DNA of 64,000 bases from an uncultured bacterium (lineage in GTDB: Bacteria > Margulisbacteria > WOR-1 > CAZGTC01): positions 1,304 through 65,303 of the forward strand of contig CAZGTC010000009.1 of NCBI GenBank assembly GCA_964528395.1, in the 5' to 3' direction. Below, one piece after another: positions 5,544 through 63,999 of this stretch. Within the stretch, counting starts at the first letter, position 1. Every line of letters starts with the position of its first letter. The notes under the pieces were generated by a model. That model did no database searches. It saw only the letters and a program-made list of their open reading frames with translations, and was not told where the DNA came from. Position numbers and translations under genes: made by a program.

Positions 5544-6080
5544 TTAACGCTTGCTGAATTGGAAGCTCTTGCGCGCGCGCTTATGCCCGTATTTTTTCCT
5601 TTCTTTCATGCGCGGGTCGCGGGTTAGGCATTCGCCTTTGCGCAAAGGCATTTTTAAAATCGTGCTGTAAGAAACTAATGCGCGGGCAATGGCCATTTGG
5701 ATGGCATCGGCCTGGGCTGCCACTCCTCCGCCATGTACGCGAGCCAAAATATTGAATTTTTTTTGCAGGCTGGTTATCTCCAATGGCCGCATAACCTTGG
5801 ACAAAAGAATGTGGCGGTTAACAAAAAACTCCGGCATGCTTTTGCCATTGACAATAATGATTCCCTTGCCCGGGCGCAAGATTATTCTGGCTACAGATGT
5901 TTTGCGCCGGCCAGTGCCAAAAAAATAATCTTTTGAAGGCTCAATCCGGTGCTTCTTTTTTACCGGAACCTTTTCTACAATCGTAGTAGCATGTTTTTTT
6001 TCTGTTTCCGGAGCTGATTTAACTTCCTTTGTTTTGGGATGGGCTTTTTTGGCAGTTTTAGCTTTTTTTTCTTCAGACAT
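5544..6080 (-). CDS. rpsI: 30S ribosomal protein S9 with N-terminal extension
   Basis: GTGRRKTSVAR, GGGVAAQA, RDPRMKERKKYG, FSKR C-terminus. Confidence 0.97.
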   Translation of the reverse strand: MSEEKKAKTAKKAHPKTKEVKSAPETEKKHATTIVEKVPVKKKHRIEPSKDYFFGTGRRKTSVARIILRPGKGIIIVNGKSMPEFFVNRHILLSKVMRPLEITSLQKKFNILARVHGGGVAAQADAIQMAIARALVSYSTILKMPLRKGECLTRDPRMKERKKYGHKRARKSFQFSKR

Positions 6081-6083
6081 TAA

Positions 6084-6524
6084 TTACACCTCTTGCTTTT
6101 CTGGTTTTTGGGCGGAAAAAGAATGCTGGCTTCCTTTTACAACCTTGAGTTTTCGAAAAATTTTGCGGCCCAGCCGGCCTTTTGGAATCATTCCCCAAAC
6201 TGCTTCGCTGATAACTTTGCAGGGATTCTTTTGCTGCATATCTTTTAAAGCAATCAAGCGATGTCCTCCCGGATACCCGGAATGGGAAAAATAAATCTTT
6301 TGCTCTAATTTTTTTCCAGTAGTCCTTATTTTTTCTGCATTAATGACAACCACATAATCCCCGTTGTCAATATTCGGCGTATAATCCACACGGTGCTTGC
6401 CCATCAGGATATAAGCAACTCGCGCCGCCAAGCGCCCCAAAATCTTGCCGCTGGCATCTACCAAATGCCATTTCTGCTTGACGTCTTCTTTTCTTATTAA
6501 AGTCATTTTTTTTCTTTTTTTCAT
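6084..6524 (-). CDS. rplM: 50S ribosomal protein L13
   Basis: WHLVDA, LGRLA, GDYVVVINAEK, HSGYPGG. Confidence 0.97.
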   Translation of the reverse strand: MKKRKKMTLIRKEDVKQKWHLVDASGKILGRLAARVAYILMGKHRVDYTPNIDNGDYVVVINAEKIRTTGKKLEQKIYFSHSGYPGGHRLIALKDMQQKNPCKVISEAVWGMIPKGRLGRKIFRKLKVVKGSQHSFSAQKPEKQEV

Positions 6525-52240: not shown

Positions 52241-53683
52241 ATGAAAATATTTACCCGAAACCAACTACGCGAATTAAACGCTTTTGGCCGCTCCAAGCTT
52301 GGTTTTCCTGGACACTTATTCCCTTCGTTTTTAAATGCTGGGAGTAGACTACGAATATGTTTTATGTCCAGCACCGATATTGGCAGGATATGTGATTTGA
52401 TAAACAACCTCCCCTATAAAAAACTTAAGTCTGTTTTTCTAGTCAATCGTGCTAATAAAAGAGATGGTGACAAAAATTATCTAGCCAAAATTTATGCAAA
52501 GATAAAAGATCTTTTAAAAATAGGCAAGGATAATTTAAATCCCAGAAAGAAGGCTATGCTTAAATTATTTTCTGTTATTGCTGATTGTAGTAGTAGTGAA
52601 GTGCTGGGATCTAAAATTTCAGCTACAACAGTTGACGGCTGCAGAAAAGAATATCTTATTCTTAATAAAAAGCCAATTGCTAGAGGGGGATATTGTTCAG
52701 TCTATGAAGGATATGATCCGGAAGAAGCTAAGAGAGTAGCTATAAAGGTATTGAATCCGGCTGCTGGAAATAGTGATCCAGTTGCTAAAGAGAGGTTAAA
52801 GCAAGAATTTGAAATAATGGCAAGGCTAAAGCATCCTGCTATAGTTTCTGCTTTGGCTCAAGGAAGAGTAATTAGGAATAATCGAGAGATTCCCTTTATT
52901 GTGGTTGAGTTTGTTGATTCCCCAACCCTGCGAGAATATCTTGCTAAAAATAGCAACCGTCTTTCCCCATCTGAAGCGATTGATATAGCAATACAAATTG
53001 TCCATGCAATGATCGCCGCAAGACAAAAAGGAATATCTCATCGAGACTTAAAACTGGATAATATTTTTTATTCTAATGGTGTAGTAAAGATTGGTGATTT
53101 TGGTTTGGCAAAAGCAGCTGACCCCGCACAAAAGGAACAAGATATTACCAGAACAGGATTTGTTGTCGGAACGCCGGGCCACTATCCTCCAGTTGGCGCT
53201 AGACTTCTTAAAATGAACAATAGAACGAAAAGGAGTAATGAGGAAAAAAAAGAAATGCAAAGAATTAATTTTTACTACGATCAATATGCACTGGGCGTAT
53301 TATTATATCGATTGTTGATGGGAACAAACTTAATTTTTGAAGGGGAAAATAACGATCCCTTTCAAATTGGCGAGATAAGCATGAATCCGGCCATAAATAT
53401 TGTTTCTCAATCTTCGTTTCAGCGTGATTTCTTGGCCTTTATAGATAGAAGGACGCCTCCAGAAAAAAGATCGGCGCTACAGCGCAAATATAGAATAAAA
53501 AAAACCTTGCCTTATTATGAGATAGAGGCAGGTCGTCTATTAAAAGTTAGTCTCCCTGATAAAATTTGGGATGTTATTTCTAGACTCGCGTCTTTTAATC
53601 CCGAAAATTATTACAGAAATTTTAATGAAGTAAAATATGTTTTGCTCGAACTACAAAGAGAATTTGGTATAGCCCCGCTCTAG
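52241..53683 (+). CDS. Hanks-type Ser/Thr protein kinase, soluble, divergent
   Basis: IARGGYCSVY, VAIKVL, HRDLKLDN, KIGDFGLAK, GTP, DQYALG; no TM or PASTA domain seen; AT-rich. Confidence 0.88.
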   Translation: MKIFTRNQLRELNAFGRSKLGFPGHLFPSFLNAGSRLRICFMSSTDIGRICDLINNLPYKKLKSVFLVNRANKRDGDKNYLAKIYAKIKDLLKIGKDNLNPRKKAMLKLFSVIADCSSSEVLGSKISATTVDGCRKEYLILNKKPIARGGYCSVYEGYDPEEAKRVAIKVLNPAAGNSDPVAKERLKQEFEIMARLKHPAIVSALAQGRVIRNNREIPFIVVEFVDSPTLREYLAKNSNRLSPSEAIDIAIQIVHAMIAARQKGISHRDLKLDNIFYSNGVVKIGDFGLAKAADPAQKEQDITRTGFVVGTPGHYPPVGARLLKMNNRTKRSNEEKKEMQRINFYYDQYALGVLLYRLLMGTNLIFEGENNDPFQIGEISMNPAINIVSQSSFQRDFLAFIDRRTPPEKRSALQRKYRIKKTLPYYEIEAGRLLKVSLPDKIWDVISRLASFNPENYYRNFNEVKYVLLELQREFGIAPL

Positions 53684-53788
53684 TTTGGTCCTAAAATCTC
53701 TCATACATAATATAAATAATAATATCGTCATTTTTTGCCCAAAATTCCGCAAAAACAAAATTATTTATCAGAAAAATCCTTTTTCTAT

Positions 53789-53797
53789 TGTTATAAT
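53789..53797 (+). promoter_or_regulatory. Extended -10 (TGTTATAAT), 8 nt before ATG 53806
   Basis: Motif read directly; no SD. Confidence 0.6.
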
Positions 53798-53805
53798 AGT
53801 AAATA

Positions 53806-54303
53806 ATGTACTACCAAGAAATTATTGAGGCCTTAAATAAAAACAACATCCGCTACGTCATTATCGGAGGATTAGCCTTAGTCTTGCACGGGGTTGTACG
53901 TTTAACTGCTGACCTAGATCTAATTGTTGATTTTGAAGAAAAAAATCTTAAAAAACTCCTAAAAGTTCTAGAACAATTAAATTTTAAGCCCCAACTGCCA
54001 ATAGACGCAAAAAAATTACTAGAAGAGAAAACTAGGAAAAAATGGGAAATCGAAAAAAACATGAAAGCTTTTGCTTTTATTCACAAAAAAGATGATTATA
54101 AGCTTATTGATATCATCATTAATCCCCCCTTATCTTTTAATGAGGTTTATAAGCGTAAACAAGTCATACAAGCTCAAAAAACAAAAATAAATGTTATTTC
54201 CTTTGAAGATTTGATAACTTTTAAAAAACAAGCTGCCAGAACCCAAGATCTAAAAGATATTGAAATGCTGCTAGAATTAAAAAAACATGAAAAAAAGCAA
54301 TAA
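53806..54303 (+). CDS. Minimal nucleotidyltransferase (DUF6036-like)
   Basis: YVIIGGLALVLHG..R.TADLDL, K.AAR.QDLKDI. Confidence 0.8.
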   Translation: MYYQEIIEALNKNNIRYVIIGGLALVLHGVVRLTADLDLIVDFEEKNLKKLLKVLEQLNFKPQLPIDAKKLLEEKTRKKWEIEKNMKAFAFIHKKDDYKLIDIIINPPLSFNEVYKRKQVIQAQKTKINVISFEDLITFKKQAARTQDLKDIEMLLELKKHEKKQ

Positions 54304-54442
54304 ATATAGCTTTAAAATGGATAAACAAAAATTATTAGCTTTATCCAAAATGTCTATAGAATCCCGGCTTAATTGGCTGGAAGAAGCTAATAAATTTATA
54401 AGTCAAGTTAAAAAGAAGCCAAAAAAAGCAGATAAATTCTAA
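54287..54442 (+). CDS. 51-aa partner protein (missed by the ORF track)
   Basis: MKKSNKYSFKMDKQKLLALSKMSIESRLNWLEEANKF...; overlaps the NTase 3' end; MS.E.RL.WLEEAN resembles small NTase partners. Confidence 0.6.
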   Translation: MKKSNKYSFKMDKQKLLALSKMSIESRLNWLEEANKFISQVKKKPKKADKF

Positions 54443-54452
54443 AGGAAACTTC

Positions 54453-54611
54453 ATGAGCTCTGTGCATTTTTCCACAATATTCACTTCTATAAATGAAGAA
54501 TTTACTGACAAAGAATGGAAAAAGTTGGAGCGTCTAAAGAAAGAGAAAGGAAAAGTTTTTAAAAACAGCCGATTTTTTCTAAAACATCTCAAAGCTATGG
54601 TAAAAAAATAA
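54453..54611 (+). CDS. 52-aa ORF, antitoxin C-terminus-like (missed by the ORF track)
   Basis: MSSVHF...EEFTDKEWKKLERLKKEKGKVFKNSRFFLKHLK; stop abuts the sbcD ATG. Confidence 0.45.
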   Translation: MSSVHFSTIFTSINEEFTDKEWKKLERLKKEKGKVFKNSRFFLKHLKAMVKK

Positions 54612-55778
54612 ATGCGCTTTGTACATTTTTCTGATACACACCTTGGTTACGCGGCTTTTCGCAAGATCACAGAAGCTGGGTATAACCAGCGCGAAGAAGA
54701 CTTGAACAATGCCTTTATCCAAGCCATTGATAAGATCATTGAATTAAAGCCGGATTTTGCCCTGCATAGCGGGGATCTTTTTGATTCTGTTAGGCCAACC
54801 AACAGGATTATCCGCTTAGCCATTGAGCAAATTTTACGTCTTATCAAAAATAATATCCCGTTGATCATGATTTCCGGTAATCATGAAACCCCTAAGCAAC
54901 GCTATCTGGGTTCTGTTTTTTCTATCCTAGGGGTCCTGCCCCTGCCTGCCGGCAGGCAAGGCTATCCAGATAATTTATTAAAAGTTTCACACCATGGAAT
55001 ATATGATCAAATCCTAGTGAAAAATAATTTAACCATCCACGCTATTTCCCAATGTGCCAATGGAGAGCTTTTCCAAAAAGAAATAGAAAAAATACAAATC
55101 AACCCGCAAACTTATAATATTTTGACCATGCACTGCGGCATTTCCGGCATGCAGGAATTTTCTCATGGGGATTTTAACGAGCTTTTGGTTGATTACCAAT
55201 TTTTCCAAAACCATAAGTTTAACTACATTGCACTCGGACATTATCATAATTATATCCAAGTCGGGCCCCGAGCCTATTTTGCCGGGTCAACTGAAAGATT
55301 AAGTTTCAACGAAGCGGGAAAACAAAAGGGATTGGTTGAAGTAACCCTAGATAAAGAAACCACGGTTAGATTCCATGAAATTAAAACCCGCCCCATGCTG
55401 GAACTTTCTACTATCAATGCCCAGGATAAAGAAATCAACCAGCTAACTGAAGAAATAGAAAACCACATAAAAAATGCGCAGCCTGAAGGAAAAATCATGC
55501 GCTTCAAAGTTGAGAATGTCCCCTCCCATATTTTTGAACATTTGGACATAAAAAAATTCCGTGAAATGGCTAAAGACGCTTTGCACTTTGAACCCATTAT
55601 TGAAAAAAAAGAAGATCAAAAAAACCACCAAACCTATAAGCCAAAAATTGGGGGATTGGTGGAAGAGTATGGGACATTTATTAATCATCACCCGGGTTTA
55701 TCCGAAGAAGAAAAAAAAGAGCTTCTACAAAACGGACAAACATACCTAGCCAAAGTTTTGGAGGAAAGCAAACAATAA
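54612..55778 (+). CDS. sbcD: SbcD/Mre11 nuclease
   Basis: HFSDTHLG, SGDLFD, GNHE, ALGHYH, AGSTER. Confidence 0.92.
   Translation: MRFVHFSDTHLGYAAFRKITEAGYNQREEDLNNAFIQAIDKIIELKPDFALHSGDLFDSVRPTNRIIRLAIEQILRLIKNNIPLIMISGNHETPKQRYLGSVFSILGVLPLPAGRQGYPDNLLKVSHHGIYDQILVKNNLTIHAISQCANGELFQKEIEKIQINPQTYNILTMHCGISGMQEFSHGDFNELLVDYQFFQNHKFNYIALGHYHNYIQVGPRAYFAGSTERLSFNEAGKQKGLVEVTLDKETTVRFHEIKTRPMLELSTINAQDKEINQLTEEIENHIKNAQPEGKIMRFKVENVPSHIFEHLDIKKFREMAKDALHFEPIIEKKEDQKNHQTYKPKIGGLVEEYGTFINHHPGLSEEEKKELLQNGQTYLAKVLEESKQ
54941..54960. repeat. Near-perfect palindrome CCTGCCTGCC-GGCAGGCAAG in frame in sbcD
   Basis: Translated LPAGRQG. Confidence 0.7.
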
Positions 55779-55781
55779 ATT

Positions 55782-57944
55782 ATGCGATTAGTATCATTAA
55801 AACTAAAAAACTACCGCCAGCATGAGGATACTTTTGTTGAATTTCCGGATGGCTTAATCGGCATCATTGGGTTAAATGGCGCGGGAAAATCATCGCTGAT
55901 TGAAAGCATTGCCTGGACGCTTTTTGGGAGCCTGGCTGCGCGCACCGATAAAGAAGGCATTAAAAGAACCTCGGCTCCTGCAAATGCCAGCGTTGAAACC
56001 AGCCTAGAAATTGAGCTGAACGGAAATTATTACAAAGTCCAGAGAATATTAAAAGGAGACAAGCAAACCGCGCTCGCCTCAATAATTGCCAATGGAAAAG
56101 TAATTGCGGATACTACAAAAGCCTGCGATAAAGAAATTGAATATCTTTTGGGCATGGATTATAAATCTTTTTATACCAGCTTTTTTGCCCGCCAAAAAGA
56201 ATTAAATGCTTTGACTGACTTAAACCCCAACCAGCGGCGCGATATTATCATCCGCATGCTGCGCATTGACGCCATTGACAAGACCATTGATATGATCAGA
56301 AGCGATTCCCGCGACCAAAAAATGCAGGCCGAAGTCTTAAAAAAAAGCCTAAAGGATCCTAATTTATTAGAAAGCCAGAAAATAGCACAAGAAAAAAAAT
56401 TAGGGCAAATACAAGGACAGCTGCAAAAACTAGAAAAGGAATTAGAAAAACAAGAACAAGTTGTAGGCAAATTTAAAGATTTATTTGCGAATGAGAGAAA
56501 AATTTACGAAAAGTATAATGAATTAGAAAATCAAATTATTAAACATAAAACCAAGTTAAAACAAGGACAAAAACAAGCACAAGATATCAAAAAAGAACTG
56601 GAGAATATTAAAGAGCTGGAAAACAAAATAAAAACTATCCGGCAAAGCACTAAAGACTTGGAAAATCTGGAAAAAGAAAAAAAAGCCTTGGATCTAAACC
56701 GCGAGAACAATCTGGTCAAAGCCCAGGAACATTTAACCACAATAGAAAAATCCTTGTCTGAAAACTCTGCCCATTTAAAAATTTTAAGAGAAAAATATAA
56801 AGAGATTGCAGACAGCAAAAAACAAATAACTTCCCGCGGAAAAAATGCCGCCTGCCCCACCTGCCACCGGGAGCTGGGAAACGATTTTGAAAAAATCATC
56901 TCTCATTTTGACGAAGAGTTAAATAAAATAACGAAAGAAGCTGATAGCCTAAAAAAAGAAAATGACTTAAAAGAAAACCAGAAGATTGAAATCAGCCTTA
57001 TAATAAAAAACCTAAGGCAAAACCTGCCGACAAAAACCACGGCTCTACAGATTAGTTTGTTCCAAAAAGAATATAACCCAAAAGAGCTTACAGATATTCA
57101 AGATAAAATTAAAGCAGCACAAAAAGCTAAAGACGAATACGTTAGACTTTCCGCGCAGATCGAGCAAAAACCAAAACTAAAAGATGAAGAACAGAAAATT
57201 AATCGAGAAATAGAACAAATTCAGCAAACACTAGAAAAATTAGAAAAAGAACAAAACGAACTGAAATACAACAAAGAAGAACACAGCAAAATTACCCGCC
57301 AAAACGAAGAAGAAAAAGAAAAACTAAGGATCCTGTCCCAAAACTTAAGCCAAAGCAAGATAGAACTGGTTTCCTGCGAAAAAGAGATCGAAAAATTCGA
57401 TGCAGAGATCAAAAATATTGAAAGCACTAAAAAAGCCATTGAAAAGCTGGCGCAAAGCCAAACCAAAATCACCCAGTTGACGAATATTATGGATGAATAC
57501 CGCACGCATTTGATCTCGCGCATCCAGCCCGAACTATCAAAAACCGCCAGCGACCTATTCATCACCCTAACGGATGGCAAATATTCTGGTATTGAACTAG
57601 ACGATAAATACGACCTATTTATTTATGACGGTAATATTAAATATCCTCTCTCGCGCTTTTCCGGAGGAGAAGCCGACCTGGCAAACCTTTGCCTGCGCCT
57701 GGCAATTTCCCAGCTAATTTCTGCATCCGCTGGCATTGACGGCGGGTTTATTATTCTGGATGAAATTTTTGGCAGCCAGGATGATATACGGAAAAATTCA
57801 ATCCTCAATGCTCTGGCAAAATTATCCAAACAATACCGCCAAATCATAATCATCACCCATATTGAGGACATCAAAGATTCGCTTGAAGCTATTATCGAGG
57901 TTAAAGAAAACGAGCAGGGAACCAGTCAAGTCAAACAAATTTAG
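55782..57944 (+). CDS. sbcC: SbcC/Rad50 SMC-like ATPase
   Basis: GLNGAGKSS, Q-loop FARQ, zinc hook CPTC, FSGGE signature, ILDEIFGSQD, IITH. Confidence 0.93.
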   Translation: MRLVSLKLKNYRQHEDTFVEFPDGLIGIIGLNGAGKSSLIESIAWTLFGSLAARTDKEGIKRTSAPANASVETSLEIELNGNYYKVQRILKGDKQTALASIIANGKVIADTTKACDKEIEYLLGMDYKSFYTSFFARQKELNALTDLNPNQRRDIIIRMLRIDAIDKTIDMIRSDSRDQKMQAEVLKKSLKDPNLLESQKIAQEKKLGQIQGQLQKLEKELEKQEQVVGKFKDLFANERKIYEKYNELENQIIKHKTKLKQGQKQAQDIKKELENIKELENKIKTIRQSTKDLENLEKEKKALDLNRENNLVKAQEHLTTIEKSLSENSAHLKILREKYKEIADSKKQITSRGKNAACPTCHRELGNDFEKIISHFDEELNKITKEADSLKKENDLKENQKIEISLIIKNLRQNLPTKTTALQISLFQKEYNPKELTDIQDKIKAAQKAKDEYVRLSAQIEQKPKLKDEEQKINREIEQIQQTLEKLEKEQNELKYNKEEHSKITRQNEEEKEKLRILSQNLSQSKIELVSCEKEIEKFDAEIKNIESTKKAIEKLAQSQTKITQLTNIMDEYRTHLISRIQPELSKTASDLFITLTDGKYSGIELDDKYDLFIYDGNIKYPLSRFSGGEADLANLCLRLAISQLISASAGIDGGFIILDEIFGSQDDIRKNSILNALAKLSKQYRQIIIITHIEDIKDSLEAIIEVKENEQGTSQVKQI

Positions 57945-58508: not shown

Positions 58509-58517
58509 ATTATATCA
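58509..58517 (-). promoter_or_regulatory. Extended -10 (TGATATAAT), 6 nt before the pyrR ATG
   Basis: Overlaps the PGM stop TGA; no SD. Confidence 0.5.
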
Positions 58518-59951
58518 AATTTTATTGATAATTGCCTTAACATCCTGCTGGATAAGGGATAATTTTTCCAAAGAATCTGACTCAAAATACCCCCTAAGCA
58601 ATGGCTCGGTGCCAGATGGACGAAGTAAAACCCAAGAAGATTGGTCTTCGAGCAAGAATTTAACTCCATCAATAATTTTTAGCTCTTTTACCTTTAGATT
58701 GCCAATAGTTTTTATGCCCTTGGCTGCCTGGGCTAATTTCTCTTTTACCCCGGGTTTTACCGGCAAATTAATTTTTCCCTGATAAAAAGCCCCTAATTCT
58801 TTTTCCAAATCCGCATAAATTTGCGAGAGAGGCTTATTATAAGCATTAAGCATCTCAACCATAAGCAAATCTGCCAAAGTCCCGTCTTTTTCCGGGATAT
58901 GGTTCAGGATTGAAAGCCCCCCGCTCTCTTCCCCGCCTAAGACCACTTTTTCTTTGAGCATGATTTCTGCGATATATTTAAAGCCCACGGGCACTTCGTG
59001 TAATTTAACTTTGTATTTAGTGGCTAACTTATCTAACATATGGGTTGTGCCAACTGATCTCACCAAGCTGCCGCGCCAGCCTTTTTTTTCCATTAAGTAA
59101 TTGGCGAGAAGAACAACCACGCGATGCGCGCTAATAAATTTCCCTTTTTCATCAATTACTCCAAAGCGATCCGCATCCCCGTCATTGGCCAGCCCTAAGT
59201 CACAAGTTTCAATTTTTACGGTTTTTGCCAGCTCATGCAAATTTTCTTCATCGGGCTCTGGAGACCTTCCTCCAAACAGAACATCGCGCTGGCAATTCAG
59301 TGCGATAATTTCATGGCCGAGTGATTCTAAAAAAGCATCAATATAACCTCGGCCTGACCCAAACATAGCATCATAAGCAATTTTTCTTTTGGTTTTCTTA
59401 ATTAAAGCTATATCTAAAAAAGAAGACAAATAATCAAAATAATTGGGGCGGGGATTAAAATGATCGAAGGTGCCTCGACACCTCGACTCCGCTCGGTGTC
59501 CAGAGCTGTCTCGTACCCTGAGCGGAGCCGAAGGGTTCGCTGAGAGCTCGCTTTTTAAATTCTCTTCTATTTCTTTGGTAATCGCTAAATTGGCTGGACC
59601 CGCATATTCTGGAATAAATTTTATGCCGCAATACTGCGCTGGATTGTGAGAAGCCGTGAGCATAATTGCACCAGAAGCTTTTCTTTGTTTTATTTCCCAG
59701 GCAATCACTGGAGTTGGGGTATCGCGGTCAGGAAATAAGCAATTGATTCCAGCCTCATTCATGACTTTAATGATTTCTAAAGCAAACTTATCTGCTAAGA
59801 ATCGAGCATCGTAGCCCACAATTAAAACTTTTTTATCTAATTTGTGTTTTTGCAGGTAAATAGAAATTGCCCGGGCTACTTTTTTGACATTTTCAAAAGT
59901 AAACTCATCGGAAATGATTGCCCGCCAGCCATCGGTTCCAAATTTAATCAT
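58515..59951 (-). CDS. Phosphoglucomutase/phosphomannomutase family protein
   Basis: FGTDGWR, TASHNP phosphoserine, DGDADRF, VPVGFK, GGEESGG, RPSGTEP. Confidence 0.95.
   Translation of the reverse strand: MIKFGTDGWRAIISDEFTFENVKKVARAISIYLQKHKLDKKVLIVGYDARFLADKFALEIIKVMNEAGINCLFPDRDTPTPVIAWEIKQRKASGAIMLTASHNPAQYCGIKFIPEYAGPANLAITKEIEENLKSELSANPSAPLRVRDSSGHRAESRCRGTFDHFNPRPNYFDYLSSFLDIALIKKTKRKIAYDAMFGSGRGYIDAFLESLGHEIIALNCQRDVLFGGRSPEPDEENLHELAKTVKIETCDLGLANDGDADRFGVIDEKGKFISAHRVVVLLANYLMEKKGWRGSLVRSVGTTHMLDKLATKYKVKLHEVPVGFKYIAEIMLKEKVVLGGEESGGLSILNHIPEKDGTLADLLMVEMLNAYNKPLSQIYADLEKELGAFYQGKINLPVKPGVKEKLAQAAKGIKTIGNLKVKELKIIDGVKFLLEDQSSWVLLRPSGTEPLLRGYFESDSLEKLSLIQQDVKAIINKI
59477..59536. 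repeat. Inverted pair of REP-like hairpins in frame within the PGM/PMM gene
   Basis: GACACC-TCGACTCCGCTC-GGTGTC (59477-59500) and ACCCT-GAGCGGAGCCGA-AGGGT (59515-59536). Confidence 0.85.
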
Positions 59952-59959
59952 AGGTGATG

Positions 59960-59999
59960 ATTATACCAGATTGTTTTATAGCCGAAAACCCTTTAAAAT
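59960..59999. promoter_or_regulatory. Divergent promoters for PGM (TGGTATAAT, - strand) and tadA (TTGTTT-N17-TAAAAT, + strand)
   Basis: Each -10 lies 8 nt before its ATG (59951; 60008), with no SD. Confidence 0.6.
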
Positions 60000-60007
60000 A
60001 GTAAGCT

Positions 60008-60457
60008 ATGCATGAAAGTTTTATGAAAGAAGCTTTGAAAGAAGCAAAAAAAGCTTATCAAAAAAACGATGTGCCGGTTGGCTGCGTGGCAGTGAAGAAC
60101 GGAAAAATCATTGCCCGCGCCCATAATCTGCGGGAATCAACCAATGATCCAACTGCGCACGCAGAAATCTTGTGCCTCAAAAAAGCTGCGAAAAAGCAAA
60201 AATGGTGGGTTTTAAAAGATGTAGATATTTATGTAACCTTAGAGCCCTGCCCCATGTGCACAGCAGCAATCATGCAGGCTAGGGCCAGAACTATCATATA
60301 CGGGGCGGACAATTTGTTGTGGGGGGCTTGCAGTAAAAAAATAAAACTAGTTGACAAAAAAATCTTTCAGCATAAAATAAAGATTGTAAAGAATGTTTTA
60401 CCTAAAGAATCTTCAACATTGCTGAAAAAGTTCTTCAAAAAAGTGCGCAAAAAATAA
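60008..60457 (+). CDS. tadA: tRNA adenosine(34) deaminase
   Basis: VPVGCV, DPTAHAE, TLEPCPMC. Confidence 0.92.
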   Translation: MHESFMKEALKEAKKAYQKNDVPVGCVAVKNGKIIARAHNLRESTNDPTAHAEILCLKKAAKKQKWWVLKDVDIYVTLEPCPMCTAAIMQARARTIIYGADNLLWGACSKKIKLVDKKIFQHKIKIVKNVLPKESSTLLKKFFKKVRKK

Positions 60458-60468
60458 ATTCCCGGTGC

Positions 60469-60498
60469 AAGAGACAGTCTAAACGCTGTCTCTTTTTT
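60469..60498 (+). terminator. Intrinsic terminator after tadA
   Basis: GAGACAG-tctaaacg-CTGTCTC followed by TTTTTT. Confidence 0.75.
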
Positions 60499-60503
60499 AT
60501 GGA

Positions 60504-60565
60504 GGTCTCCTCGACTCCGCTCGGAGACCAGGTCATTCAGGTCATTGAGCGAAGTCGAAATGACC
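60504..60565. repeat. REP-like inverted pair upstream of tRNA-Ser
   Basis: GGTCTCC-TCGACTCCGCTC-GGAGACC and GGTCATT-GAGCGAAGTCGA-AATGACC. Confidence 0.88.
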
Positions 60566-60573
60566 GCTATAAT
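60545..60573 (+). promoter_or_regulatory. TTGAGC-N17-TATAAT promoter for tRNA-Ser, -35 inside the repeat
   Basis: -35 at 60545-60550, -10 at 60568-60573, tRNA begins 60590. Confidence 0.7.
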
Positions 60574-60589
60574 ACAACAATAAATTTCT

Positions 60590-60678
60590 GGAAGAGTGGC
60601 CGAGTCTGGTTGAAGGCGGACGCCTCGAAAGCGTCTATACCTGAAAAGGTATCGGGGGTTCGAATCCTCCCTCTTCCG
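60590..60678 (+). tRNA. tRNA-Ser (CGA), 3' CCA not encoded
   Basis: GGAAGAG/CTCTTCC acceptor stem, GACGC-CTCGAAA-GCGTC anticodon arm, long variable arm ATACC-TGAAAA-GGTAT, GTTCGAA T-loop, G73. Confidence 0.96.
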
Positions 60679-60726
60679 TTCCCCGGGTATATTCCGGGCA
60701 CATCCTTTACACTTTTTTATGACCAC

Positions 60727-60788
60727 GTTCCCTTCGACTCCGCTCAGGGAACTGAACAATCGGTCATTGAGCGGAACCGAAATGACCG
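60727..60788. repeat. REP-like inverted pair upstream of the GIY-YIG gene
   Basis: GTTCCCT-TCGACTCCGCTC-AGGGAAC and CGGTCATT-GAGCGGAACCGA-AATGACCG. Confidence 0.88.
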
Positions 60789-60795
60789 TTATAAT
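60767..60795 (+). promoter_or_regulatory. TTGAGC-N17-TATAAT promoter, 6 nt before the GIY-YIG ATG
   Basis: -35 at 60767-60772, -10 at 60790-60795, ATG 60802, no SD. Confidence 0.7.
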
Positions 60796-60801
60796 ACAGG
60801 C

Positions 60802-61179
60802 ATGAAAGGCTACATGTATATTTTAGAGTGTGGAGATGGAACATATTATACAGGCAGCACTAAAAATCTAGAAAAACGTCTGCTAGAACATGGTAATTCT
60901 ATGGGAGCAAACTACACAAAAAAGAAACAACCTCTCAAATTAGTATACTTCGAAGAATATCCAAGAATTGACGAGGCTTTTCATAGAGAAAAACAAGTTC
61001 AAGGTTGGAGTCATGCAAAGAAAAAAGCTCTGATAGAAAGCAAATTCAAAGATTTGCCTCCGTTATCTGAGTGCAAAAATGTTAGCCATTATAAAAACAG
61101 TCGCATCGATTCGACGGACACTTCGACTTCGCTCAGTGTTCGACCCCACTCGGCAACCATCACTCGGTATCCGAGTTAG
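60802..61179 (+). CDS. Small stand-alone GIY-YIG nuclease (UPF0213/YhbQ-like)
   Basis: YMYILECGDGTYYTGST, RLLEH, GANYT, LVYFEE, AFHREKQVQGWS..KKKALI; start set at ATG 60802 because the upstream ORF part overlaps the tRNA. Confidence 0.9.
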   Translation: MKGYMYILECGDGTYYTGSTKNLEKRLLEHGNSMGANYTKKKQPLKLVYFEEYPRIDEAFHREKQVQGWSHAKKKALIESKFKDLPPLSECKNVSHYKNSRIDSTDTSTSLSVRPHSATITRYPS

Positions 61180-61207
61180 TTCGTCATTGAACATAGTCGA
61201 AACGACC
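61116..61207. repeat. REP-like pair downstream of and overlapping the GIY-YIG 3' end, with an internal small hairpin
   Basis: GACACT-TCGACTTCGCTC-AGTGTT; ACTCGG-TAT-CCGAGT; degenerate GTCATT-GAACATAGTCGA-AACGAC. Confidence 0.8.
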
Positions 61208-61259
61208 ACGTAAATATTAATAATCATCAGAATCTATATTTTATATAATCTCAGGAAAA

Positions 61260-61817
61260 ATGTTAAAATACAAACATATGCAAACAACACAATCACTAGA
61301 CCAAATGAAAGCTAATATTGATGGAATTTTTAATAGACGGTTATTAAATATCCCTAACGATATCAAAAAAGAATTTCCAGATATTCTGAAAGCAGAAAAT
61401 ACTCATCAAATAACTTACTATGCAGAAAACAGATATCTTCTTATTGCCTTTTTTTACGCAAAAGAACTCGAAAGAATCAATCAGTTTCTAAATAATAATC
61501 ATCATCCATTTCCCGGCTTAATATCAGAAGACGCGAAAAACCCCGGGGCTTTTAAGTTACAAGATAGCAGAAATATCTTAATTGAAAACTGTACAATATC
61601 AAACACATTTTCATTCTCAAACTGCAAAGATTCAACTATTTTACTAAAAAATCATGAACAGAATATAACTACTAATGAAATCAACCAATTAAACTATAAA
61701 ATTGATTTAGCTTTCATTGTTTTTTTAGGAAAAAATATTAACAATGAAAATTTATTGGAAAACTTAGAAAACTTAACAACCTTTGCAGTCAACAAATGGA
61801 GCTCAAAAATTGGATAA
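61260..61817 (+). CDS. Hypothetical protein, very AT-rich
   Basis: 185-aa ORF with no recognised motif; overlaps the next ORF. Confidence 0.6.
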   Translation: MLKYKHMQTTQSLDQMKANIDGIFNRRLLNIPNDIKKEFPDILKAENTHQITYYAENRYLLIAFFYAKELERINQFLNNNHHPFPGLISEDAKNPGAFKLQDSRNILIENCTISNTFSFSNCKDSTILLKNHEQNITTNEINQLNYKIDLAFIVFLGKNINNENLLENLENLTTFAVNKWSSKIG

Positions 61818-62466
61818 TCCATATGAAGAATTAAAAGGTTTAATTTCTTCTAAAAATAAAAATGAAATCCTGTGTAGGAAATATCTAAAACATACACCTC
61901 AAATTCTATTTAATAAGTCAGTAATAGCCCTTATAAATTTTGATGAGGAAGATCGTGGAAGTTCTGGAGATTCCGATTATGTTATATCCGGAATAGTTAA
62001 AAACGACGCAGGTAGTGAATATAATTTAGCTTATATATGGGAAGTAAAAGCTGCCCAATGTTATATTTTTGAAGAAGAAACAAAAAATAGACTTAAACCG
62101 TCATCAGATTTAGTAAAAGCAGAAAATCAATTAATAAATTATTATAATGACAAAAAAGGAGATGAAAAATTCAGAAATCGTTTTAAAATAACACACTCAA
62201 ATTTTGTAAAAATAGGAGGGATAATAATCGGATCAAATAAAACATTAATAAAATCAAAAAAAATAAAATCAAAACAAACCTTTCTTGAAGCCTCAAGTTT
62301 AAGAGAAAATACTCTATATAAAAGCCCGGGCATAAGATTAATAATTTGGGATACTATTTTAGATCAATTAAAAAATCAAGAATATAACAATAAAACAGAA
62401 AATGGAAAAATAAAAAACATCTCAATCCCAAATGCTCAAACAGCTAATTTCATTAAAATAGATTAA
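61810..62466 (+). CDS. Shedu/DUF4263-like PD-(D/E)XK nuclease domain protein
   Basis: NE..CRKYL...PQIL, SDYV, WEVK, PSSDLVKAENQLINY, IIIGS, IRLIIWDTIL; TTG 61810 follows GGAG (ORF track starts at 61783). Confidence 0.65.
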   Translation: MDNPYEELKGLISSKNKNEILCRKYLKHTPQILFNKSVIALINFDEEDRGSSGDSDYVISGIVKNDAGSEYNLAYIWEVKAAQCYIFEEETKNRLKPSSDLVKAENQLINYYNDKKGDEKFRNRFKITHSNFVKIGGIIIGSNKTLIKSKKIKSKQTFLEASSLRENTLYKSPGIRLIIWDTILDQLKNQEYNNKTENGKIKNISIPNAQTANFIKID

Positions 62467-62516
62467 TAAATTTTTCATAATATATAAATTTAATTCAAAA
62501 TAAAGAAAAGTAACTT

Positions 62517-62632
62517 GGTCGTTGAGCGGAGTCGAAACGATCTTCTTAAAGTACCCTTCGACTCTATAGACACCTCGATTCTGCTCGGTGATCGGATAAC
62601 TCGGTCGTTGAGCGCGGTCACTGAGCGCAGCG
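62517..62632. repeat. REP-like cluster closing the island
   Basis: GGTCGTT-GAGCGGAGTCGA-AACGATC; partial CCTTCGACTC; CACC-TCGATTCTGCTC-GGTG; further decayed TTGAGCG/CTGAGCG copies. Confidence 0.8.
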
Positions 62633-62682
62633 ATACCACATTTGTCATTTGACATTTTTAATTGTTAATTGGAGCGCAGCGA

Positions 62683-63999
<1,317 letters not shown>

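Follow-up and report, generated by a model that had tools for sequence, protein, structure and literature searches.

Small single-domain GIY-YIG proteins of the Ssn type (CDD cd10448) are encoded by genes flanked 5' and 3' by hairpin repeats, called NTS in Neisseria and SRM more widely (Chenal et al., Nat Commun 2025; PMC11893778). Hundreds of further NTS/SRM copies are present per genome, Rickettsia being among the SRM-rich genomes (PMC11893778). The Ssn proteins cut single-stranded DNA (ssDNA) next to the hairpin and are inactive on double-stranded DNA and on RNA. In those studied, recognition involves the stem and a 5' flank, whereas the loop can be dispensed with, and in N. meningitidis Ssn modulates natural transformation (PMC11893778). 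The authors themselves liken the system to IS200/IS605, REP and RAYT (PMC11893778). Here we describe a locus in a 64-kb stretch of DNA, called the window below at its full length (contig CAZGTC010000009.1 of an uncultured WOR-1 margulisbacterium), in which hairpins with a conserved 12-nt loop surround the gene of a 125-aa GIY-YIG protein. We favor the view, at a probability of about 0.65, that the locus comprises a small Slx1/UPF0213-like single-domain GIY-YIG nuclease together with its own cognate DNA hairpins, working like Ssn/SRM.

Comparison with described hairpin systems

The likeness to Ssn/SRM extends to the protein, a stand-alone single-domain GIY-YIG of about 95-125 aa, to the presence of oriented hairpins 5' and 3' of its gene with repeats clustered or, in other genomes, dispersed at other genes, and to the wide spread across phyla, where one gene goes with many orphan repeats. 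SsnA was represented by NTS-flanked GIY-YIG genes recovered from IMG/VR (in locus L256 the order is NTS-gene-NTS), and these are detectable homologues of the window protein (L256, L279 and others). There are also differences. The published consensus, HGTCWYN(0-2)YYVSBRHN(0-5)WNVSBRGN(0-2)RNCYNB, is unmatched by the window hairpins: it has 0 matches in the whole window and in loci L201-L203, while the control NTS sequence is found. The joint change of protein tail and loop and the residence in type I restriction-modification (R-M) operons, both described below, are unmentioned in PMC11893778. A literature search for the loop sequences returned unrelated primer matches only, and searches pairing GIY-YIG with YhbQ/COG2827, or GIY-YIG with type I R-M, returned nothing relevant. 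Our verdict is that the hairpins and the nuclease of this clade are a distinct variant of the known Ssn/SRM kind of system. A preliminary description of this DNA had placed a GIY-YIG nuclease in the position that RAYT holds among REP repeats. The tie between repeats and nuclease is borne out by the relatives of the gene (next section), but since Ssn/SRM has been published with the same REP/RAYT analogy, the central idea of that description is already in print.

The REP/BIME/REPIN-RAYT systems share with the present one short hairpin repeats that are often in inverted pairs (four in the window, at least 120 elsewhere), a single gene flanked by repeats with many orphan copies, and repeats that are presumed to be recognized as ssDNA. 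However, the enzyme here is a GIY-YIG protein and not an HUH/Y1 transposase, no Y1 enzyme being found among the window genes scanned. Moreover, a REP family is conserved whole within a genome, whereas here only the loop and its closing pairs are conserved, across phyla. UPF0213 (BH0048, EF2693, YazA/YhbQ type) and Slx1, which is a structure-selective nuclease, provide the closest structures and sequences and have the same minimal GIY-YIG core. We know of no hairpin repeats at UPF0213 genes, and the clade described here differs from UPF0213 in its C-terminal half, which comprises REKQVQGWS..KKKALI and a specificity tail and resembles the Ssn type.

Two other systems invite comparison. The palindromic elements of Rickettsia are short palindromes inserted in frame in protein-coding genes without destroying them, and a hairpin pair of the window lies likewise in frame in a linker of the phosphomutase PGM; it belongs, however, to another sequence family in another host and is the single in-frame case here. 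Integron attC sites, like the present hairpins, owe their identity to structure and not to the sequence of the stem, and they bracket gene cassettes, but no IntI was found among the genes scanned, there is no attI/attC architecture, and the cargo of this locus is mobile without hairpins.

The nuclease and the hairpins at its gene

The window protein matches the Pfam GIY-YIG family (PF01541, E 6e-17) over residues 2-74 of 125, and no further domain is matched. The conserved domain and its ECKNVSHYKN tail account for residues 1-99, and residues ~100-125 are a read-through into hairpin 7 (Table 1). Y6, Y16, G18, R26, H30 and E63 are invariant in the homologue alignment and are the residues expected for catalysis. 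In the AlphaFold (AF2) model the core is compact with pLDDT above 90, and the value drops below 50 after residue 97, where the chain is predicted to be disordered. The nearest solved structures are the UPF0213 proteins 1zg2 (BH0048) and 1ywl (EF2693), at Foldseek ranks 1-2, followed by Slx1; profile matches to the two give E 1.3e-21 and 1.1e-15, respectively. BH0048 is 39.5% identical to the window protein (E 4e-15). With identity to the solved UPF0213 proteins at only ~30-40%, the window protein is to be taken as their relative, not their orthologue. PADLOC returned nothing for the protein, and NCBIfam gave one sub-threshold match only, to a group I intron endonuclease (E 0.0019). An origin from phage was considered and rejected: IMG/VR holds distant relatives only, at 55% identity or less over partial matches.

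Thousands of relatives with 60-80% identity are found in very different phyla. Many homologues end in FDSAQG, LDSARG or RSLSGVET, which are translated hairpins, and these peptides stand at one fixed place, past the conserved ...ECKNxSHYxN end. In the closest relative (P0002, locus L204 4056-4631), the open reading frame (ORF) continues into six tandem FDSAQGAA units, which correspond to a head-to-tail array of '+' hairpins with a 24-nt period. Locus L123 has two GIY-YIG copies (356-781 and 6001-6360) that look identical over the stretch seen; the two are direct repeats separated by 5.6 kb, with ordinary genes between them and the same hairpin cluster upstream of each.

The presence of hairpins at the gene was examined in 80 independent metagenome loci encoding GIY-YIG relatives. 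With the canonical loop (at most 2 mismatches, stem of at least 4), hairpins are found within 400 bp of the gene in 47 loci, at a density of 1.74/kb near the gene versus 0.038/kb farther away. Loci without the canonical loop have the same architecture with other loops: TCGAGnnCCTC, TCGACAnGCTC, or a long TCGATAC...CTC with an inner hairpin. Once the loop is generalized, 72 of the 80 loci have at least one hairpin within 400 bp, the density being 2.87/kb near versus 0.074/kb farther (~40-fold), and hairpins stand on both sides of the gene in 34. These numbers support a specific tie of the repeats to this GIY-YIG subfamily, and the statistical flanking that the preliminary description had proposed to look for is present. 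Several relatives also have second hairpin clusters 0.6-6 kb off. In an alphaproteobacterial relative on a Sphingomonas parapaucimobilis plasmid (L201), the tail is different and the gene is still flanked by TCGACTTCGCTC hairpins. On S. meliloti pSymB (L203), the hairpins flanking an Ssn-type gene are of a different sequence, CATCCCTGTG ctcgt CACAGGGATG.

The orientation of the hairpins follows a rule. The nearest upstream hairpin is '-' in 36 of 45 loci, with which hairpin 6 of the window agrees. The nearest downstream one is '+' in 54 of 61, at a median offset of 47 nt and with half of the cases in a single 25-nt bin, and hairpin 7 of the window is a '+' copy at this conserved place. From these comparisons of sequence the gene and its hairpins are evidently inherited as a unit, in the order [+ -] gene [+ -].

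The fixed position of the '+' copy at the 3' end of the gene, where it is often translated or read through, might also be explained if the hairpins acted in RNA, as processing or stability signals or as the site of the protein on its own mRNA, the DNA repeat pattern being secondary. An early survey did see a prokaryotic Slx1-like GIY-YIG domain fused to a tRNA methyltransferase (PMC1564403). We nevertheless find an RNA role hard to credit. The hairpins come in both orientations, mostly as inverted pairs, and stand also in untranscribed or antisense contexts. They have no Rfam match and, with their large loops and no T-tract, they are not terminators. The characterized relatives, moreover, do not bind RNA (PMC11893778).

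The order (+)(-) gene (+)(-) is also what would be expected if a '(-) gene (+)' unit had entered the spacer of a (+)(-) pair. It might accordingly be that the hairpins are host REP-like elements (promoters, transcript ends, mRNA stabilizers or protein sites) which spread by other means, and that the GIY-YIG gene is a selfish gene of the homing type that targets them. Its presence in many unrelated contexts, R-M operons included, and twice in L123, would fit such a gene. We regard this explanation as unlikely, although its bearing on the dispersed copies and on promoters has to be considered as well (see below). The loop changes with the protein. Of 44 loci with an xCxNx(S/T) tail 41 have loop A, of 18 with an AYRD tail 16 have loop B, and of 12 with an NYTQ-type tail 9 have loop C. 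The diagonal of this table (41/16/9) gives a chi-square P of 3e-23, a value that is uncorrected for phylogeny. There are at least four tail/loop classes among the relatives; as a separate observation, L137, L177, L183, L195 and L200 combine a LAKKVF-type tail with long-loop TCGATAC...CTC variants holding an inner hairpin. Loop and C-terminal tail thus change together among these loci. The correspondence would be expected either way if the loop is read, but elements belonging to the host would then have to switch with the nuclease.

Structure and dispersal of the hairpin

The 12-nt loop is constant across phyla, while the stem is free in sequence yet complementary. Over a set of 480 unique hairpins, complementarity at the four inner positions of the stem is 95, 90, 88 and 88%, with many pair types in the stem and 151 different 6-mers preceding the loop; the closing pairs are mostly T-A, then C-G. 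When the partner strand is slid, pairing of pairs 2-4 drops to 21-51%. Pair 1 is the exception: with a slide of one column it still reaches 83%, since the base next to it is usually G and pairs as G-T. In a formal count on 103 sequences, 76.6% of the cells are paired as against 50.8% in shuffles (0 of 500 reaching the observed value), and the covariation score is 0.635, compared to 0.203 in shuffles and at most 0.17 with a slid partner. The covarying stem for which the preliminary description had called is therefore present, and selection on the hairpin structure can be considered demonstrated at the level at which sequences speak to it.

Folded as ssDNA, 8 of the 10 window hairpins form a stem with an open 12-nt loop. 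Local stems are also kept by about 100 solo copies that lack an inverted partner, and within a pair the stems of the two arms usually differ; hence it is the small hairpin that is conserved as a unit. At position +7 past the loop there is a C in 67% and an A in 30% of 496 hairpins (L001-L204 and the window), with no matching constraint on the 5' side; the conserved +7 base may be a recognition or cleavage flank.

Dispersal was examined by an exact search of one GTDB genome per species for the pair TCGACTCCGCTC-N15-45-GAGCGRARYCGA. At least 120 loci match, where by our own calculation ~1 would be expected by chance in 596 Gb. The same pair is spread over more than 10 phyla; among the matches listed are Bacteroidota, Cyanobacteria, Gammaproteobacteria, Planctomycetota, Myxococcota, Spirochaetes, Fibrobacterota, Zixibacteria, Desulfuromonadaceae, Melioribacteraceae, Margulisbacteria, Sericytochromatia and Riflebacteria. 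Dispersed pairs are present on several contigs of one genome in a Leucothrix, in a cyanobacterium and in a member of the Melioribacteraceae. Some genomes have the pair at the center of a longer repeat that is found on several contigs with the same flanking sequence, as in Archangium (L021/L119/L120), cyanobacteria (L050/L056/L083) and Leucothrix (L002/L014/L057/L073); part of this flanking sequence is inverted, in the manner of a MITE or REPIN.

Only 3 of the 120 pair loci listed have the GIY-YIG gene within the 8-kb locus, and in all three the hairpins adjoin it: on both sides in L010, where 17 hairpins lie around the gene within 1.3 kb, and in L041; in L063, where the gene runs off the end of the locus, they lie just upstream. 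The other 117, with no GIY-YIG gene inside their 8 kb, are what a homing gene acting on host elements would leave; the pattern of one gene and many orphan repeats is, however, also that of RAYT and of Ssn, and no other recurrent enzyme stands near the dispersed copies listed. Another transposase as the driver of dispersal, which the preliminary description had named as a possible source of the repeats, can be rejected: none was found among the window genes scanned and no transposase family recurs beside the dispersed copies listed, the recurrent neighbors being ABC ATPases, sensor proteins and similar.

If the nuclease and its cognate hairpins do work like Ssn/SRM, the nuclease would, by analogy, recognize the hairpin in ssDNA, either on the lagging strand or in DNA entering by transformation or conjugation, and it would read the loop, probably through its C-terminal tail, and cut nearby. 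Inverted pairs would offer one recognizable copy on whichever strand is exposed. The hairpins would spread to new sites as non-autonomous passengers of the nuclease activity or of the ensuing repair, and in this way both the pair set in frame in the PGM linker and the copies scattered over many genomes would be accounted for. In the window, tRNA-Ser and the nuclease gene may each have a promoter supplied by a '-' copy; that of the nuclease gene, being borne on a hairpin, would allow autoregulation. The Shedu-like cargo module would be an independent mobile island that landed in, or came to be bracketed by, a hairpin cluster.

Several observations weigh against the proposal of an Ssn/SRM-like system. 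The window protein is just 33-35% identical to the NTS-flanked genes (E 2e-12 to 1e-7, for a space of 1e8 residues); in a simple neighbor-joining tree, the clade falls with UPF0213 and not with the NTS type. NTS conserves the stem and 5' flank, whereas here the loop is conserved, which is the opposite mode, and the significance attached to the tail-loop table carries the phylogenetic limit given above. Single window hairpins are weak, at -1.7 to -6.8 kcal/mol, and not set apart from shuffles (z from +0.5 to -2.9), so that the case for structure rests on covariation and not on energy. Moreover, when a whole pair is folded as a single strand, the favored shape is a long hairpin whose conserved 12-bp stem is made by the two 12-mers (-14 to -16 kcal/mol), and the form that is read could therefore be a stem rather than a loop. 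In the window, the copies are confined to 3.2 kb, so that the case for dispersal comes from other genomes. Finally, GIY-YIG enzymes have to our knowledge no strand-transfer activity that could account for the copying step.

The window locus, its cargo and the association with defense loci

Two scans of the 64-kb window located the hairpins. In a pattern scan for TCGAYTYYGCTC with at most 1 mismatch, controlled by 100 shuffles, there are 10 matches versus 2.15 expected, none of the 100 shuffles reaches 10, and 9 of the 10 matches fall in 59483-62586. A hairpin-aware scan, in which the loop is allowed at most 3 mismatches and stem length is counted, finds stems of 4-8 bp at ten loop starts only (Table 1), all other near-matches in the 64 kb having a stem of just 0-2 bp. 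The ten hairpins span 59477-62594, each with a 12-nt loop close to TCGACTCCGCTC and a variable stem of 4-8 bp. The preliminary description had likewise counted ten copies within 3.2 kb and none elsewhere in the window, and the hairpin-aware scan recovers the same ten positions. It had also described the copies as inverted pairs, which is true of four clear +/- pairs at 59477-59536 (A), 60504-60565 (B), 60727-60788 (C) and 61115-61207 (D); the right-hand cluster E (62517-62632) is irregular, with a lone '-', a truncated copy, a '+' copy and a degenerate '-' copy. For hairpin 8, the expected fold is not the minimum-energy fold. With Rfam in E-value mode over 58-64 kb, the tRNA is the sole match and there is no family for the hairpins.

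Table 1. Hairpins and genes of the 3' part of the window (window positions; loop starts are those of the hairpin-aware scan)
Feature	Position	Strand	Loop start	Sequence or remark
PGM/PMM gene	58515-59951	-		carries pair A
Hairpin 1	59477..59500	+	59483(+)	GACACC-TCGACTCCGCTC-GGTGTC; inside PGM/PMM coding sequence; folds with 6-bp stem and 12-nt loop
Hairpin 2	59515..59536	-	59520(-)	ACCCT-GAGCGGAGCCGA-AGGGT; inverted partner of hairpin 1; in PGM domain I-II linker
tadA	60008-60457			terminator 60469-60494
Hairpin 3	60504..60529	+	60511(+)	GGTCTCC-TCGACTCCGCTC-GGAGACC; just past tadA terminator
Hairpin 4	60540..60573	-	60547(-)	GGTCATT-GAGCGAAGTCGA-AATGACC, then TATAAT; repeat family D1
tRNA-Ser(CGA)	60589..60679	+		between two hairpin pairs; context only, no general partner
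Hairpin 5	60727..60752	+	60734(+)	GTTCCCT-TCGACTCCGCTC-AGGGAAC
Hairpin 6	60761..60795	-	60769(-)	CGGTCATT-GAGCGGAACCGA-AATGACCG, then TATAAT
GIY-YIG gene	60802..61179	+		125 aa; ATG 60802, stop 61179
Hairpin 7	61115..61142	+	61123(+)	CGGACACT-TCGACTTCGCTC-AGTGTTCG; loop begins 54 nt past codon 89 of GIY-YIG gene
Hairpin 8	61182..61207	-	61189(-)	CGTCATT-GAACATAGTCGA-AACGACC; degenerate, 3 loop mismatches, G-T stem pairs
AT-rich cargo, two overlapping ORFs	61260-62466	+		between pair D and cluster E
Cargo ORF1	61260-61817	+		185 aa, no family match
Cargo ORF2	61783-62466	+		227 aa (218 aa in database); weak Shedu SduA_C/DUF4263-like nuclease
Hairpin 9	62517..62542	-	62524(-)	GGTCGTT-GAGCGGAGTCGA-AACGATC
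Truncated copy	62553..62566	+		ACCCT TCGACTCTA; repeat family D3
Hairpin 10	62569..62594	+	62575(+)	GACACC-TCGATTCTGCTC-GGTGATCG; 2 loop changes, weak 4-bp stem
Degenerate '-' copy/copies	62603..62632	-		GGTCGTTGAGCG / CGGTCACTGAGCGCAGCGA
GAGCGCAGCGA remnant	~62674-62684			adjoins ahcY stop
ahcY	62683-63993	-		right of cluster E

The order is thus PGM/PMM, tadA with its terminator, pair B, tRNA-Ser, pair C, GIY-YIG, pair D, cargo, cluster E and ahcY. As had been described, the stand-alone GIY-YIG gene has hairpins on both sides, 5-6 upstream and 7-8 downstream. Pair A is read in frame in PGM/PMM, between Pfam domains I and II. An alignment with 11 homologues shows 15 extra residues in the window PGM exactly at this pair, the enzyme being otherwise intact; its best homologues are from Margulisbacteria/Saganbacteria (WOR-1), at 55-59% identity.

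Over 37 nt that extend into TATAAT, the '-' copies of pairs B and C share 89% identity. Each contains a promoter-like TTGAGC-17-TATAAT that agrees with the consensus at 10 of 12 positions and is built partly from hairpin stem and loop. The one in hairpin 4 (60545-60573) lies 15 nt upstream of tRNA-Ser. The one at hairpin 6 (60767-60795) ends 6 nt before the GIY-YIG ATG, from which we infer a leaderless transcript. Near-consensus promoters on two window copies are a point for host elements targeted by a homing gene, but the promoter is a local trait of stems ending in ATT and not of the hairpin family.

There is no integrase or transposase among the genes of the region and its neighborhood scanned with Pfam, ten other window ORFs included, and an HMM scan finds no second GIY-YIG gene in the window. 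An island of the integrase type, with a duplicated tRNA 3' end, was rejected, as no 11-mer of the tRNA is repeated within 58-64 kb and its 3' end is not duplicated there. Within this scope, the absence of integrase, transposase and tRNA 3' duplication reported in the preliminary description is upheld. Its choice of tRNA-Ser as the setting of the system is not: a tRNA is near the nuclease gene in just 1 of 54 related loci, and the adjacency is incidental. Farther to the left, 52241-57944 is AT-rich (GC 0.34-0.39) and hairpin-free; it encodes a Ser/Thr protein kinase, a DUF6036/AbiEii-like nucleotidyltransferase and an SbcD-like/SbcC-like pair, and may be a second accessory or defense island.

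The cargo is, as had been noted, very AT-rich, with a GC of 0.31-0.34 versus ~0.43 for the window. ORF2 scores 22.3 bits against PF14082, under the cut-off of 27 (E 1.6e-4), and E 3e-5 against PADLOC SduA, and some of its homologues carry a precomputed PF14082 match. These homologues, scattered in bacteria and archaea, are full length at ~200-235 aa. Classical SduA is longer than this. We considered whether the cargo could be a long SduA broken by a frameshift and rejected it, given that the ~200-235-aa homologues are full length and have a separate conserved partner ORF. In 4 of 5 distinct contexts fetched, a small overlapping ORF precedes the ORF2 homologue, and two of these partner ORFs, when compared, were 32-37% identical to ORF1. 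The form seen in the window and in L350, L351 and L353 is that of a ~165-185-aa ORF without a family match followed by a ~227-aa DUF4263-like nuclease. Judged from these contexts, the two cargo genes form a conserved module, plausibly a defense system of an undescribed Shedu-like two-gene type.

The preliminary description saw in this arrangement a possible system of cassette capture. Such a system would be integron-like, with hairpins as recombination sites bracketing genes captured next to the nuclease gene, defense genes in particular. The same-orientation hairpins 8 and 9 do bracket the Shedu-like module; the copies around the cargo that had been described as direct are family members in the same orientation, ~74-78% identical and not exact duplicates. 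Clusters also bracket an MNT/HEPN pair and DUF1156 in the locus of the closest relative, and the second clusters of several relatives, 0.6-6 kb away, together with the strong association with type I R-M, could be read in the same way. We think such a system very improbable. No recombinase is present among the genes scanned, and strand joining is not a known activity of GIY-YIG enzymes. The genes between clusters elsewhere are ordinary or varied (RhuM-like, HMG-CoA-pathway, outer-membrane), the tRNA adjacency is incidental, and in R-M operons the GIY-YIG gene is an inserted passenger and not a collector. In none of the six other cargo-module loci fetched were hairpins found, and in one of them the module stands beside a tyrosine integrase and CcdA; the module therefore moves without hairpins.

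What does stand is the association of the nuclease with defense loci, which is real. HsdS, HsdR or HsdM lies within 3 kb in 15 of the 56 relatives with enough flank, and the hsd genes invariably point the same way as the GIY-YIG gene, usually with the latter between them; with RhuM and DUF1016 included the count is 20 of 56. Loci L124, L136, L161, L165, L179, L191 and L192 are examples, RhuM and DUF1016/YhcG being often nearby. The closest relative (79% identical) resides in a DUF499/DUF3780/DUF1156 operon, where hairpin clusters bracket the nuclease gene, the MNT/HEPN pair and DUF1156. Of the earlier proposal that the system gathers defense genes, the association with defense loci is thus retained and the gathering is unsupported.

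A more far-reaching form of the Ssn/SRM-like reading may be put forward tentatively, as a possibility that we rate below even odds. The nuclease would belong to a distinct, undescribed family of hairpin-specific ssDNA nucleases, sister to Ssn, that reads the 12-nt loop via a short, co-switching C-terminal tail and is accessory to type I R-M and other defense loci, its hairpins being passengers in intergenic DNA, promoters and protein linkers across more than 10 phyla. Such a nuclease might restrict or mark single-stranded DNA that R-M enzymes cannot cut.

Taken on its own, the window is an unexceptional example of its kind. Three leads are new: the loop-conserved class of hairpin, the correspondence between tail and loop, and the association with R-M. 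If the favored reading is true, the class of sequence-specific ssDNA nucleases would gain a second large clade with a different mode of DNA recognition, and the match of tail class to loop sequence would provide a readable specificity rule, useful for ssDNA tools. The 'FDSAQG' and 'RSLSGVE' ends of hypothetical proteins, a common nuisance in metagenome annotation, would be explained as translated hairpins. That the gene is found within type I R-M operons hints that hairpin nucleases may be linked with defense against, or control of, incoming ssDNA.

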